From Betaproteobacteria bacterium (GTDB taxonomy: Bacteria > Pseudomonadota > Gammaproteobacteria > Burkholderiales > SG8-39), in contig SCTY01000056.1 of assembly GCA_004297625.1 (NCBI GenBank), positions 71,843 through 135,842 of the forward strand: DNA of 64,000 nucleotides, in the 5' to 3' direction. Made by a program: the position numbers and the translations under genes. Under the pieces are notes generated by a model. It searched no databases, was not told where the DNA came from, and saw only the letters and a list, made by a program, of their open reading frames with translations. Below are positions 4,030-7,259 of this stretch, in pieces. Positions within the stretch are counted from its first letter, which is position 1. The number at the start of each line of letters is the position of its first letter.

Positions 4030-4814
4030 TGGAGCTTGCGGCCAACGACAGAAAGGTTTTCGCCTACACCGCGTCGCGCCCTGTCGATGCGCGCAAGCCG
4101 ACCCTGGTATTCGTGCACGGCGCGGGCCTCGATCATTCGTGGTTCGGCCTGCAAAGCCGCTACTTCGGCTACCACGGGCGCAACGTGCTCGCGGTCGACC
4201 TGCCGGGCCACGGGCGCTCGGACGGGCCGCCGATCGCCGCGGTGGGCGCAATGGCGGACTGGGTTTTTTCCCTGCTTGATGAATTGAAAATTCAAAAGGC
4301 GGGTATCGTTGGCCATTCTCTCGGCTCGCTCGTCGCCCTGGAATGCGCGAACCGTCAGCCCGCGCGCGTGGAGCGCATTGCGCTGATCGGCACGGCGTAC
4401 CCGATGAAGGTCTCCGAGGCGTTTCTCGACGCGGCACGCCGCAACGACCCCAGCGCCTTCGACATGGAGACCATCTGGGGTCATGCGGCGCAAGTTCCGC
4501 TCGGGGGCAACCCGAATCCGGGGATGTGGATGTACGGCGATACGCTCGCGCGCCTTCGGCGCCTCGCGCCCGGCGTGCTCCACAACGACCTCGAGGCCTG
4601 CAACGACTACGTGTCGGACTTCGCCAACGTCAAATGCCCGGTGCTCCTCATCCTCGGCAAGCGCGACGTCATGACGCCGCCCCGAAATGCAAAGGGTTTG
4701 CAAGGCAAGCTTCCCCATTGCGAAACGGTCTTGATCGATCTCTCCGGGCATTCGCTCATGGCCGAGGCGCCCGACGCGACGCTCGACACGCTGATCTCGT
4801 TCTTCAGCGGCTGA
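4029..4814 (+). CDS. alpha/beta hydrolase
   Basis: 261 aa with VFVHGAG and the nucleophile elbow GHSLGS. The ATG overlaps the metY stop (TGATG). Confidence 0.85.
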   Translation: MELAANDRKVFAYTASRPVDARKPTLVFVHGAGLDHSWFGLQSRYFGYHGRNVLAVDLPGHGRSDGPPIAAVGAMADWVFSLLDELKIQKAGIVGHSLGSLVALECANRQPARVERIALIGTAYPMKVSEAFLDAARRNDPSAFDMETIWGHAAQVPLGGNPNPGMWMYGDTLARLRRLAPGVLHNDLEACNDYVSDFANVKCPVLLILGKRDVMTPPRNAKGLQGKLPHCETVLIDLSGHSLMAEAPDATLDTLISFFSG

Positions 4815-5154
4815 GCCGCGGCAGGGACTTGGGAAACGCGAGCGCGAGCGCCCAGCCGAGCAGCACGCCCGCGCTGTCGGCGAACATGTCGAAAACCTCG
4901 AAGGTGCGGTAGCCGAGCCAGCGTTGCATGAACTCGAGGCCAACGCCCATGGCGATGAAAAGCGCGGCGTAGGCGATCCGCGGGGCTCTGGCGGCGTAGA
5001 GCTGGGCGAACCAGAACATGACGAGGCCGTAGGCGAAGAGGTGCCCCGCCTTGTCGCTCTGCTCGACATCGATCGTCGGCGGCGAGGGCGTTAGCGACAG
5101 CCAGGCAATGGCTGCCACCAGCAGCCATCCCACCGCTATATAGGCGCGGCGCAT
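4804..5154 (-). CDS. VanZ-like membrane protein
   Basis: 116 aa with 3-4 hydrophobic helices and the KAGHLFAYG motif. The ATG overlaps the stop of the radical SAM gene by 1 nt (TGATG), so the two are probably co-transcribed. Confidence 0.7.
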   Translation of the reverse strand: MRRAYIAVGWLLVAAIAWLSLTPSPPTIDVEQSDKAGHLFAYGLVMFWFAQLYAARAPRIAYAALFIAMGVGLEFMQRWLGYRTFEVFDMFADSAGVLLGWALALAFPKSLPRLSR

Positions 5155-7259
5155 CAGAACAGGTTGAGTTGCCCGCCGCGCGGCGGGCGAAAGCGCGAGC
5201 AGTCGAGCTCGGCGCGGCAGCGTGCGGCGCCGTGGTCGTTCAGTCCGAACTTGCGGCAGGCGAGCTCGAAGCGCCGCTCGATCAGCTCGGCGTAGTTGCC
5301 GGTACCGCTCATGCGCGTGCCGAAGCGCGGGTCATTGTCGCGTCCGCCCCGGATCTGCCGCACGATGCTGACGACATGCTCGGCGCGCTGCGGGTAGTGC
5401 GCGACGAGCCATTCCTTGAAGATGTCCTTGAGCTCGTTGGGCAGGCGCAGGATGACGTAGGCCGCTTCGGCCGCGCCGGCCGCGGCGGCGGATTCGAGCA
5501 CCTGCTCCAGCGTCTTGTCGTTGAGCGCCGGAATCAGCGCCGCCACCATCACCCCGCAGGGTATTTGCTTTTCGGATAACGCTTTCAAGACCTGCAGACG
5601 CCGTTGCGGGCTGGCGGCGCGCGGCTCGAGCTTGCGCGCGAGCTCGCGCTCGAGGGTGCCGATCGAGACGAACACCTTGACGAGATTCTTCTTCGCCATG
5701 GGCGCAAGGATATCGAGATCGCGCTCGACGAGCGCCGACTTCGTGACCACCGTGAAGGGATGCTCGCATTCGGCCAGCACTTCCAGGATCTGCCGGGTAA
5801 TGCGGAACTTGCGCTCGATCGGCTGGTAGCAGTCGGTGTTCGCGCCGAGCGCGATGGGCTGCGGCGTGTAACCGGGCTTGGCGAGCGTCTCGCGCAACAG
5901 CTCGGCGGCGTTCGTCTTGGCGAAAAGCTTCGTCTCGAAATCGAGTCCCGGCGAGAGCTCGAGATAGGAATGACTGGGCCGGGCGTAGCAATTATGGCTG
6001 ACTATGCCATTTGCGATGAAGTCCTCGGTCTCGGTTGTGATGTCGAACAAGCGTTCGGCCCTCCCGAGCGGTTCGATCGCGGTGATGGCAAGGCGGGCGC
6101 TGCTCTTCACGGCCTGACCGGAAATGTCACGCTTGCGCACGATCGCCGGATCGACCGTATGGAAGAAGCGCAGGTGCTCGCGCAGGCCGCCGGTAATGCG
6201 CAGATAGACGATCGGCTCGACTGCAAACCGAAAATCGAGCTGTTGCAGACAGCGCTGAATCCAGTCGATGATGGTGGGATCGGTATTGCAGATGCGCAGG
6301 CAGCCGTCGTTGTAACTGCCCTCTGCATCGAAAATCCCTGCGAGGAAGCCCGCGGCCCATTCGCGCGACGCAGCGAGCGGCCAGGCGATCAGCATCCGAA
6401 TCTCGTCGACACTGGGTCGACTCTGAGCACCGATGGCGTGCAACAGGCGTCTGCCGGTCGCTGCTTTCTGAAAAACGAAATGACGGGTGTGTATCCGCCA
6501 TTCGTCGAGATATTGCTGGACGCGCAAAAGCGCCTCTACGTCGCAAAGCGCCAGACGAAATTGATGCGCCGTGGCCGATCGGCCGTTCGCTCGCCGGTAC
6601 GGGTGCGACCCCAGGTGAGCGTCTCCCCGAATCACACCGCACAGGTAGCCTAGCCGGTAGTCGTCGTTCTTGTTCGGCCCGGCTGCAAAGGCGCCGACGC
6701 CCATCATCTTGTTGCCGGTCGTGAGGTGCGGCCGTCGCCCGCGTCCCTGTTCAGTGCCGGTAACGAACTTCCAGCCCCGTTCAGTGAGGAACCGGTGGTC
6801 ACCGCCGGCGACGAGCTGCGAGCCGTCTTCGAGAGTAACTCGGTATGCTGGCTTGATGACGCTCCAGTGCGCGAGGACGCGCTGCTTCACGTAGCGCCTG
6901 TACCAGCCTTCGCGCCGGGTGCCGTAGATGGCATCGCCGACCCTGATGTCGGCGATGGGCTTCGTGGTGCCGTCGGCCATGAGGACCAGCGTGTCGCCCC
7001 GTACGCAGTAAACGCAACCATGCTCGCATCCTCTATACGGATTGATCGACGTCGTAAAGCCGACGTCCGGCGAATCGGTGTGCGACACGATCGAGCGCGC
7101 GCGCTCGATCGCCACTTCCGTTTTGAGCTCGCTTTGGGCCTTTTCTTCCGGCGTCCAGCCGTCGTCGAGCGCTTCGCGCGCGACGCTCTCAAAACGTCCC
7201 TGAGTGAACGAGCGCGCGCCGCGCAAGTGAAGCGTTTCTCTATGCCGGTCCCGGCTCAT
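5154..7259 (-). CDS. radical SAM protein of the PA0069/SplB-like (COG1533) type, interrupted by an intein (701-aa precursor; 362-aa spliced product predicted)
   Basis: The ATG at 7259 gives MSRDRHRETLHLRGARSFTQGRFES..., which resembles the KGRGA..N...RFE family N-terminus. The radical SAM motif reads NPYRGCEHGCVY-[339 aa]-CYARPSHSYLE. The rest of the protein (TDCYQPIERKFRITRQILEVL...) is colinear with the family. The upstream 416 codons of the 1117-aa track ORF are antisense to the MFS gene and were discarded. Confidence 0.9.
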   Translation of the reverse strand: MSRDRHRETLHLRGARSFTQGRFESVAREALDDGWTPEEKAQSELKTEVAIERARSIVSHTDSPDVGFTTSINPYRGCEHGCVYCVRGDTLVLMADGTTKPIADIRVGDAIYGTRREGWYRRYVKQRVLAHWSVIKPAYRVTLEDGSQLVAGGDHRFLTERGWKFVTGTEQGRGRRPHLTTGNKMMGVGAFAAGPNKNDDYRLGYLCGVIRGDAHLGSHPYRRANGRSATAHQFRLALCDVEALLRVQQYLDEWRIHTRHFVFQKAATGRRLLHAIGAQSRPSVDEIRMLIAWPLAASREWAAGFLAGIFDAEGSYNDGCLRICNTDPTIIDWIQRCLQQLDFRFAVEPIVYLRITGGLREHLRFFHTVDPAIVRKRDISGQAVKSSARLAITAIEPLGRAERLFDITTETEDFIANGIVSHNCYARPSHSYLELSPGLDFETKLFAKTNAAELLRETLAKPGYTPQPIALGANTDCYQPIERKFRITRQILEVLAECEHPFTVVTKSALVERDLDILAPMAKKNLVKVFVSIGTLERELARKLEPRAASPQRRLQVLKALSEKQIPCGVMVAALIPALNDKTLEQVLESAAAAGAAEAAYVILRLPNELKDIFKEWLVAHYPQRAEHVVSIVRQIRGGRDNDPRFGTRMSGTGNYAELIERRFELACRKFGLNDHGAARCRAELDCSRFRPPRGGQLNLF
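5991..7007 (-). mobile_element. intein (339 aa) with a LAGLIDADG homing-endonuclease domain
   Basis: Cys1 starts block A (CVRGDTLVLMADG). Block B is GGDHRFLTERGW. The two LAGLIDADG motifs are LGYLCGVIRGDAHLG and WAAGFLAGIFDAEGSY. The C-terminal blocks read LFDITTETEDFIANGIVSHN, followed by Cys+1. I checked the codons by hand: 7005-7007 is TGC, 5991-5993 is AAT, 5988-5990 is TGC. A sampled 60-nt stretch inside the element is about 55% GC, against about 75% in the 3' extein (hand count). Confidence 0.9.

Follow-up and report, generated by a model that had tools for sequence, protein, structure and literature searches.

What is a 339-residue segment doing in the middle of the iron-sulfur cluster motif of a bacterial radical SAM gene, and does it still move? 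The question is raised by a 64,000-nucleotide stretch of contig SCTY01000056.1 from Betaproteobacteria bacterium (GenBank assembly GCA_004297625.1, positions 71,843 to 135,842), hereafter called the window. On its minus strand lies a PA0069-type radical SAM gene that is split by this segment, and an earlier account drawn from the letters alone (the sequence-only reading) had called the segment a LAGLIDADG intein and found it to fit horizontal acquisition by homing. We are confident that it is a true class 1 intein, within which a LAGLIDADG homing endonuclease with two motifs is nested, and that it is a member of the SplB/COG1533 (Rv2578c-type) intein family in a betaproteobacterial PA0069 host. 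That conclusion draws on the observed anatomy, homology, predicted fold, empty-site alleles, conservation, and divergence patterns of the element. The precursor and the parts of it concerned with splicing are arranged as follows.

5154..7259, minus strand: precursor gene, PA0069-family radical SAM protein plus intein; 701 residues, 78.7 kDa; stop codon at 5154-5156
7008..7259, minus strand: N-extein, precursor residues 1-84; ends C78-E-H-G-C82-V-Y84, with the first two cysteines of the CX3CX2C motif
5991..7007, minus strand: segment read as a class 1 intein with embedded LAGLIDADG homing endonuclease, precursor residues 85-423; 339 residues, 38.1 kDa
6708..7007, minus strand: N-terminal splicing (Hint) region, intein residues 1-100; Cys1 at 7005-7007
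6783-6806, minus strand: block B, GGDHRFLT, with Asp70 and His71
5991..6107, minus strand: C-terminal splicing region, intein residues 301-339; block F Asp322, block G ending His338-Asn339
5157..5990, minus strand: C-extein, precursor residues 424-701; starts with Cys+1 (Cys424, 5988-5990)

The mechanically defined open reading frame (ORF) of the precursor stays open up to 8507 on the minus strand; the ATG at 7259 was taken as the start, and the first residues that follow from it (MSRDRHRETLHLRGARSF...) agree with the N-termini of homologues. The intein splits the motif between the second and third iron-sulfur-binding cysteines of the host. At its N-terminal end the junction reads ...NPYRGCEHGCVY|CVRGDTLVLMADG (GCEHGCVY|CVRGDT), which puts Cys82 of the N-extein at Cys-3 relative to the intein, and at its C-terminal end DFIANGIVSHN|CYARPSH, where Cys+1 serves splicing as the nucleophile and CX3CX2C as its third cluster cysteine. 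Splicing in silico yields a 362-residue product in which CEHGCVYCYARPSH, and with it the canonical CEHGCVYC, is restored. This product matched the NCBIfam model NF033668 (rSAM_PA0069) at 505.1 bits (cutoff 360) in one stretch running end to end (positions 3-348 of 348); the unspliced precursor scored 485.7 bits in two stretches. The host protein also carries a Radical_SAM domain (PF04055, 59.3 bits against a cutoff of 29.5), and it reached only 238 bits with the Rv2578c model (cutoff 430), which marks the extein as PA0069 type. NCBIfam labels the PA0069 family a hypothetical equivalog, and the name 'DNA repair photolyase' stems from the COG1533 label. The coordinates and junctions of the insertion, the colinearity of the 701-residue ORF with PA0069 proteins on both sides of it, and the regeneration of CEHGCVYC on excision had all been claimed by the sequence-only reading, and all were reproduced.

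The residues on which splicing would depend are conserved to an unusual degree. Cys1 of the intein (precursor Cys85) is kept without exception in two sets of homologues, of 200 and of 184; Asp322, His338, and Asn339 are each present in all 184, as is block B His71, and Asp70 is present in 182. The position in block B that usually holds Thr is Gly in 135 of the 184 homologues, as in the window intein, and Ser in the other 49, so the Gly that had been singled out earlier is a family trait. The rest of the predicted apparatus (Cys1, block B His, terminal His-Asn, Cys+1) was confirmed with its essential residues invariant, and among the 184-200 homologues none was found to lack the junction residues. 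Profile searches gave support from three models: the intein segment alone matched the intein portion of NF038136 at 240 bits (E-value 4.6e-71), and the intein N-terminal and C-terminal regions were recognized by TIGR01445 (27.6 bits, cutoff 24.5) and TIGR01443 (16.6-20.5 bits, cutoff 15.6), respectively. Searched against database proteins, the segment gave E-values down to 4e-156, so that a chance resemblance is out of the question.

Sequence comparison with solved structures in the PDB was weak, the best matches being a DnaB mini-intein (4o1r, intein residues 3-82, E-value 1.3e-4) and I-DmoI (about 0.1), and a fold search was therefore required. An AlphaFold2 model of the intein, built on 20 diverse homologues, reached a predicted local distance difference test (pLDDT) score of 90.6, with beta-rich segments at 1-100 and 301-339 (the Hint part) flanking the endonuclease. 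The top Foldseek matches of this model were 7qss, 1dq3, 1vde, and I-DmoI, with solved inteins at a probability of 1.00; the Tli VMA intein (E-value 7.7e-14) was followed by PI-PfuI and PI-SceI.

From these residues a conventional course of splicing can be proposed. Cys1 would attack the Tyr84-Cys85 bond in an N-S acyl shift assisted by Asp70 and His71 of block B and Asp322 of block F; Cys+1 would then accept the N-extein by trans-thioesterification; Asn339 would cyclize with the help of His338, freeing the 38-kDa intein; and an S-N shift would produce a native Tyr-Cys bond. The expected product is the 362-residue, 40.6-kDa enzyme, with CEHGCVYC then able to bind a [4Fe-4S] cluster. Because Cys+1 is also the third cluster ligand and lies 339 residues away from the other two in the precursor, the unspliced protein has no canonical site, and splicing would be a prerequisite for activity.

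If the segment is an intein, alleles without it should exist, as the sequence-only reading proposed to check, and they do. The spliced product is 91% identical over all 362 residues to two intein-free database proteins (P0241 and P0242) and 87% identical to an intein-free protein of the metagenome-assembled genome (MAG) Betaproteobacteria RIFCSPLOWO2_12_FULL_65_14 (locus L082). The junction GCEHGCVYCYARPSH is identical in these three proteins, and the N-extein junction occurs in P0241-P0244. The L082 gene also sits in the same neighborhood as the window gene: a divergent major facilitator superfamily (MFS) transporter and a D-Ser-dehydratase-like gene lie upstream of it, and downstream its stop codon is overlapped by a VanZ gene. 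The uninterrupted L082 site reads AATCCGTACAGGGGCTGCGAGCATGGCTGCGTGTAC|TGCTACGCCCGTCCCAGCCATTCC... and is 89% identical to the 72 nucleotides that flank the intein in the window, taken as a reconstituted site. A second locus, L085, has a window-like neighborhood and an intein-bearing allele. The intein-free alleles and the syntenic empty site at L082 thus demonstrate the presence and absence of the intein among close relatives.

The extein codons nearest the intein differ in composition between the window and L082. In about 20 codons on each side of the intein (7008-7070 and 5930-5990), GC content at third codon positions (GC3) is about 0.62 in the window and 0.86-0.90 in intein-free L082, and of the 12 N-extein codons closest to the intein, 4 have G or C at the third position in the window as against 10 in L082. 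This dip may, speculatively, be a co-conversion tract left by homing.

Has the family moved horizontally? Exteins of PA0069 hosts share on average 33% identity with those of Rv2578c hosts; the inteins of the two host families share 56%, and inteins inside the Rv2578c group 59%. Inteins this similar in hosts this dissimilar imply that the intein family arose after the two host families had separated and must since have passed from one to the other. Vertical inheritance since the PA0069/Rv2578c split was considered and rejected on the same figures. Such crossings are rare, since the nearest intein neighbor belonged to the same host family in 180 of 181 cases, and spread within families dominates. 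Over shorter distances the intein diverges faster than its host gene: compared with the close relative at L085 (protein P0135), the exteins are 90.6% and the inteins 71.7% identical. Synonymous divergence (dS) between the window and L085, its nearest syntenic relative with an intein, is 1.31 in the intein, as against 0.46-0.48 in the exteins, 0.49 in the MFS gene, and 0.59 in the D-Ser-dehydratase-like gene, a contrast weakened by saturation (dS > 1) and by the stronger codon bias of the exteins (GC3 0.84 vs. 0.76); VanZ, at 0.90, was compared on 112 codons. This excess over exteins and neighbors suggests that the inteins of the window and L085 are not simple orthologues. The sequence-only reading had argued for horizontal acquisition from base composition; that argument fails, as described below, and horizontal spread is shown instead by the mismatch between intein and extein divergence.

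Whether the window copy is itself still mobile depends on its endonuclease, the features of which are listed here.

6123..6695, minus strand: LAGLIDADG homing-endonuclease domain, intein residues ~105-295
6609-6653, minus strand: LAGLIDADG motif 1, LGYLCGVIRGDAHLG, intein residues 119-133; predicted catalytic Asp129
6312-6359, minus strand: LAGLIDADG motif 2, WAAGFLAGIFDAEGSY, intein residues 217-232; predicted catalytic Glu229
6204..6227, minus strand: in-frame deletion of 8 residues, FAVE^PIVY, between intein residues 264 and 265, in the beta3-beta4 hairpin of the second LAGLIDADG half-domain

Both motifs were found where the sequence-only reading had placed them, with their acidic residues intact; Asp129 is kept in 178 and Glu229 in 183 of the 184 homologues. 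The model shows the alpha-beta-beta-alpha-beta-beta-alpha topology twice, and I-DmoI superposes on the endonuclease part with a template modelling (TM) score of 0.64-0.73 (Foldseek E-value about 1e-8). The ratio of nonsynonymous to synonymous divergence (dN/dS) is 0.05-0.23 for the endonuclease domain and 0.08-0.20 for the intein, so the endonuclease has been under purifying selection within the family. At the position of the deletion, about 98% of 200 homologues have residues, and the 8-column gap is unique to the window copy among 184. Other in-frame endonuclease deletions, of 12-34 residues, occur in the relatives P0129, P0135, P0162, P0164, P0165, P0181, P0185, P0186, P0192, and P0194. They differ from one another, lie mostly in the first LAGLIDADG half-domain, and have taken the motif-1 catalytic Asp in three sequences; the splicing residues are kept in all of them. 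These look like independent events of endonuclease decay within one clade, and decay of the endonuclease with splicing retained is the pattern expected of the homing cycle after fixation.

The window copy might be at such a stage. Its splicing module is intact and both catalytic acids are kept, but with 8 residues of a DNA-contacting hairpin gone, its mobility may be reduced or lost, which would place it late in the homing cycle. A stronger form of this idea holds that the element splices and is immobile: the deletion would have inactivated or retargeted the endonuclease, leaving a vertically inherited passenger that is decaying toward a mini-intein or toward loss. The position of the deletion fits, as it is unique among about 184-200 homologues and falls on the face of the beta-sheet with which LAGLIDADG enzymes read DNA, and the independent 12-34 residue deletions in relatives, three of them removing the motif-1 Asp, fit a homing cycle. 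Active LAGLIDADG enzymes vary in hairpin length, however, and here both motifs and their catalytic acids are intact, the shortened hairpin is modelled confidently (block pLDDT 86-90), and dN/dS of the endonuclease is low family-wide. We regard the immobile passenger as a real possibility that falls somewhat short of an even chance.

Any assignment of this kind has its weak points, and those that weigh against the intein and its mobility are collected here. Three Pfam models stayed below their gathering scores: Intein_splicing (28.7 vs. 35.8), Hom_end_hint, and LAGLIDADG_3 (PF14528; 20.3 bits vs. 22.5), although many homologues carry a precomputed PF14528 match; the search with hidden Markov models that had been proposed as a check nonetheless came out in favor of the intein, through TIGR01445, TIGR01443, and NF038136. 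Block B of the window intein has Gly in place of Thr, common as this is in the family, and the endonuclease lacks the 8 hairpin residues. Part of the dS excess of the intein over its surroundings could be methodological. Base composition hardly hints at a recent foreign origin: the GC content of the intein (62.5%) lies between that of the N-extein (61.5%) and that of the C-extein (66.1%), and the window as a whole stands at 67.2%. GC3 in the intein falls near the bottom of what is normal for the window (median 0.86 for the high-GC3 ORFs), its low values being found chiefly in the endonuclease domain. The contrast of about 55% against about 75% given in the sequence-only reading therefore did not hold (62.5% against about 65%), and a foreign origin argued from composition was rejected, as the difference is just 2-4 points. 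Finally, the splicing, endonuclease activity, and homing mechanism attributed to the window intein are predictions from its sequence.

Could the segment then be something that never leaves? On this alternative the 339 residues would be a fixed internal domain or a dead, unexcised insertion, and the product a two-domain protein or the gene a pseudogene. The sub-threshold Pfam scores would be easier to understand, as would the absence of the exact protein from a large gene catalogue. It is much harder to reconcile with splicing residues that are invariant, a frame open over 701 codons, and an extein under strong purifying selection (dN/dS 0.11 against L085); the cluster ligands would be held apart in a protein without a canonical site, and intein-free alleles are colinear with the exteins to the residue. 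We consider it very improbable. An assembly artefact or chimera was also considered and is ruled out, as more than 100 independent full-length contigs share the same architecture. An intein that excises itself, from a family that has spread horizontally, is the reading we carry forward.

How widely that family occurs was asked in two ways. The intein query retrieved at least 1960 database proteins. Among them are full-length precursors of PA0069 type, about 700 residues long and 63-80% identical, on more than 100 independent contigs. Some of these precursors are NCBI proteins from MAGs named only 'PA0069 family radical SAM protein'; the Prokaryotic Genome Annotation Pipeline (PGAP) assigned such names without an intein flag. 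When GTDB was scanned with a single genome for each species, a relative of the intein turned up in at least 563 of these genomes. Carriers among the matches listed include MAGs of Burkholderiales and Usitatibacter (best 75%), Steroidobacteraceae, many Actinomycetota, Gemmataceae, Gemmatimonadota, Omnitrophota, and Armatimonadota. Two of those listed are isolates, Microbulbifer magnicolonia GG15 (L061) and Planosporangium sp. 12N6, cultured carriers that are usable for experiments. Wherever junctions could be parsed in these GTDB relatives, the insertion was at C-x3-C-x2|C.

The sequence-only reading had left aside whether this insertion site was already on record. For the sister family it is: a census of inteins named SplB (COG1533, 'DNA repair photolyase') as one of the leading hosts of inteins in bacteria and counted 48 SplB/COG1533 inteins, in Actinobacteria only (Novikova et al. 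2016, Mol Biol Evol 33:783, Table 1; PMC4760082), and NCBIfam maintains NF038136, 'intein-containing Rv2578c family radical SAM protein', as an exception model of the Rv2578c version. In the literature beyond that census table, no discussion was found of the insertion point within the cluster motif or of proteobacterial PA0069 hosts. The window intein is thus a proteobacterial, PA0069-family addition to an intein family already described, at a kind of site that is also on record, and the result for the window itself is ordinary, the family having been in the 2016 census and modelled by NCBI. The wider consequence is that the range of 'SplB' inteins extends beyond Actinobacteria: they are common in soil Beta- and Gammaproteobacteria and in other phyla, in the PA0069 family.

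Does the family keep to these two hosts? Searched exhaustively with phmmer, a set of 1.84 billion representative proteins yielded 290 clusters at E <= 1e-30, a number that rose to 978 at E <= 1e-10. Full-length matches with inteins of 36-59% identity were found between the second and third Cys of C-x3-C-x2-C in differing proteins. One group of hosts consists of DUF5131 or phage Gp37-Gp68 proteins (WNPVTGCxHxCPY|CYARDIA; P0382, P0403, P0430, P0460, and P0482), some fused to ParB_N; another consists of B12-binding radical SAM proteins (SRGCPRRCRF|CFHY; P0407, P0409, and P0441), in which P0441 has its intein one cysteine earlier (SRGCPYR|C...HN|CNFC). Further hosts include rSAM 'mobile pair'-like proteins, and P0391, P0406, P0422, and P0434 are among the other intein bearers. 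After splicing in silico, 22 such hosts had a mean identity of 14%, with essentially the three cysteines alone invariant; Pfam assigned Radical_SAM to 16 of the 22, DUF5131 to 6, and B12-binding to 3. With the equivalent motif occupied in hosts that share just three cysteines, it is well supported that this intein family specializes in the cysteine motif of radical SAM proteins, and it offers a clean natural example of motif-guided mobility in a cofactor-binding motif.

The route by which the family might have reached these hosts can be sketched. An active endonuclease of the family would cleave intein-free alleles at the sequence coding for the Cys motif, and repair would copy the intein in; homing of this kind would have carried the family across phyla and between the PA0069 and Rv2578c families, with rarer moves into the equivalent motif of other radical SAM families. 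Phage and plasmid collections held no close copy, only relatives of 26-29% identity in other hosts, and so identified no vector for the spread across phyla.

Two of these distant relatives deserve description. One (L087) is an intein of 29% identity on a plasmid of Streptomyces sp. P9-2B-2 (NZ_CP129127.1, 81504-82508), in an unannotated ORF of about 615 codons; PLSDB has no feature under the match. Its context, GCDRVSKGCDN|C...THN|CYALTLA, gives C-x6-C-x2|C in a DUF5131-like protein, and the ORF adjoins a gene for a 'three-Cys-motif partner protein TcmP'. The other (L086) is in gene Rctr197k_024 of Virus Rctr197k (KX853510.1, 19211-22480), a 1090-residue product annotated as a 'radical SAM protein-like protein'. 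It resembles an SNF2-type helicase (DEAQ box) and carries a LAGLIDADG intein of 26% identity at residues 404-754 (QRY|CLPGE...TKN|CEGH). The name was probably transferred by way of intein similarity to intein-bearing radical SAM proteins, and it serves as a caution that such similarity can pass 'radical SAM' to unrelated proteins.

The cysteines at the insertion site raise a further question, whether the intein does anything for its host. All family members have Cys at -3 and -7, Cys1, and Cys+1. One answer would be that the intein is a built-in redox or iron-sulfur gate: a disulfide between Cys-3 and Cys1, which form a CXXC (C-V-Y-C) in the precursor, would, under oxidizing conditions, block the first splicing step, and the oxygen-labile enzyme would mature only in a reducing cell; in a variant, binding of metal or of a cluster to Cys-7, Cys-3, Cys1, and Cys+1 might modulate splicing. 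MoaA is also a radical SAM enzyme. For the MoaA intein of Pyrococcus abyssi, two reports describe a native Cys-3/Cys1 disulfide that stops splicing until it is reduced, interpreted there as protecting an oxygen-sensitive enzyme (PMC3922620, PMC10663303). With this precedent and the Cys-3-x-x-Cys1 arrangement, redox-conditional maturation of the window enzyme is, by analogy, a reasonable hypothesis. The Cys-7/-3/1/+1 geometry is inherent to the insertion site in every member, yet by the same token the CXXC arises automatically on insertion and needs no selection. Invariant splicing residues amid decaying endonucleases indicate that selection maintains splicing, which is nonetheless expected of any intein in a needed gene and is no sign of regulation. 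Intein-free alleles are also common in close relatives (91% identical), which argues that the host does well without the element and has no need of the gate. We think that such a gate is rather unlikely in the window enzyme.

Combining this idea with the motif preference gives the most ambitious reading, in which the lineage is a dedicated colonist of CX3CX2C, inserting in every case directly ahead of a cluster cysteine, with few exceptions the third. It would have jumped repeatedly between otherwise unrelated radical SAM families (PA0069/Rv2578c, phage-type DUF5131, B12-binding methyltransferase-like enzymes, and 'mobile pair' proteins), and its splicing, by analogy, would be gated by redox state or iron-sulfur availability. 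If so, oxygen-labile radical SAM enzymes would mature under permissive conditions alone. The preference for the motif is well supported; the combined reading appears unlikely. The plain intein remains the preferred account, and the members of the family, with a +1 nucleophile that is an iron-sulfur ligand and a Cys-3/Cys1 CXXC, are convenient test cases for redox-conditional inteins, which have so far been addressed with MoaA.

The genes around the precursor were also compared with those at L082 and L085. The immediate neighbor is the following.

4804..5154, minus strand: VanZ-like gene (Pfam VanZ match), conserved downstream operon partner

The VanZ start codon overlaps the radical SAM stop by one base (window 5152-5156), and both the 1-nucleotide overlap and the gene order are kept in L082 and L085; judging from this arrangement, the PA0069 radical SAM and VanZ genes may be translationally coupled. 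Farther downstream, L082 (7427-12683) and L085 (8417-13940) have about 5 kb between VanZ and an alpha/beta hydrolase gene, occupied by a TctC-TctB-TctA-MmgE/PrpD-SDR cassette, with a MatE gene in addition in L085. In the window the 3' end of VanZ (4804) overlaps the 3' end of the hydrolase (4814) with nothing between; the loci thus differ by an indel of this cassette of five genes for transport and metabolism.

No tRNA genes and no Rfam families at gathering score were found in the whole 64 kb, and no transposase or integrase was found among 30 sampled ORFs, which were ordinary: LysR, IclR, and TetR regulators, TRAP and ABC transporters, acyl-CoA dehydrogenase, aldehyde dehydrogenase, tryptophan 2,3-dioxygenase, and a TPR protein. 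These scans agree with the sequence-only reading that the intein is the only mobile-type element in the window, within a survey that was a sample and not exhaustive.

How does the window intein compare with systems already described? It is closest to the actinobacterial SplB/Rv2578c inteins, to which it is 55-61% identical and with which it shares the insertion C-x3-C-x2 | intein | C-[YF]-A-R and a Hint plus double-LAGLIDADG architecture of about 340-348 residues. It differs in its host, a PA0069-family protein (NF033668) whose extein type is about 31-33% identical to that of Rv2578c; in that its host is a proteobacterium, where the 2016 survey of SplB had Actinobacteria only (PMC4760082); in the score of the whole precursor with NF038136, 496.3 bits, below the cutoff of 700; and in the 8-residue endonuclease deletion.

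The structurally characterized inteins PI-SceI (VMA1), PI-PfuI, and Tli VMA resemble the modelled window intein in having a Hint domain with a nested, monomeric two-motif LAGLIDADG endonuclease (Foldseek E-values 7.7e-14 to 1e-10). Identity to these and to I-DmoI is only 12-22%, and the orientation of the domains differs (global TM-score ~0.35). The window intein is also shorter, 339 residues as compared to 430-540 in PI-SceI, PI-PfuI, and Tli VMA, which occupy other hosts and target sites. The P. abyssi MoaA intein likewise has an oxygen-sensitive enzyme as host, a native extein Cys-3, and a catalytic Cys1 (Callahan et al. 2011, as described in PMC3922620 and PMC10663303). The MoaA host is archaeal and belongs to another extein family, and redox control, demonstrated there (PMC3922620, PMC10663303), is a hypothesis here.

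A further comparison is with the inteins clustered at P-loop or ATP-binding motifs of unrelated ATPases, which like the present family sit in the cofactor-binding motif that is best conserved across a large superfamily (PMC4760082). The P-loop inteins were described as largely independent acquisitions (PMC4760082); those in the radical SAM motif, in contrast, are demonstrably homologous and form one family, and their homology at a shared motif points to motif-guided jumps between host families.

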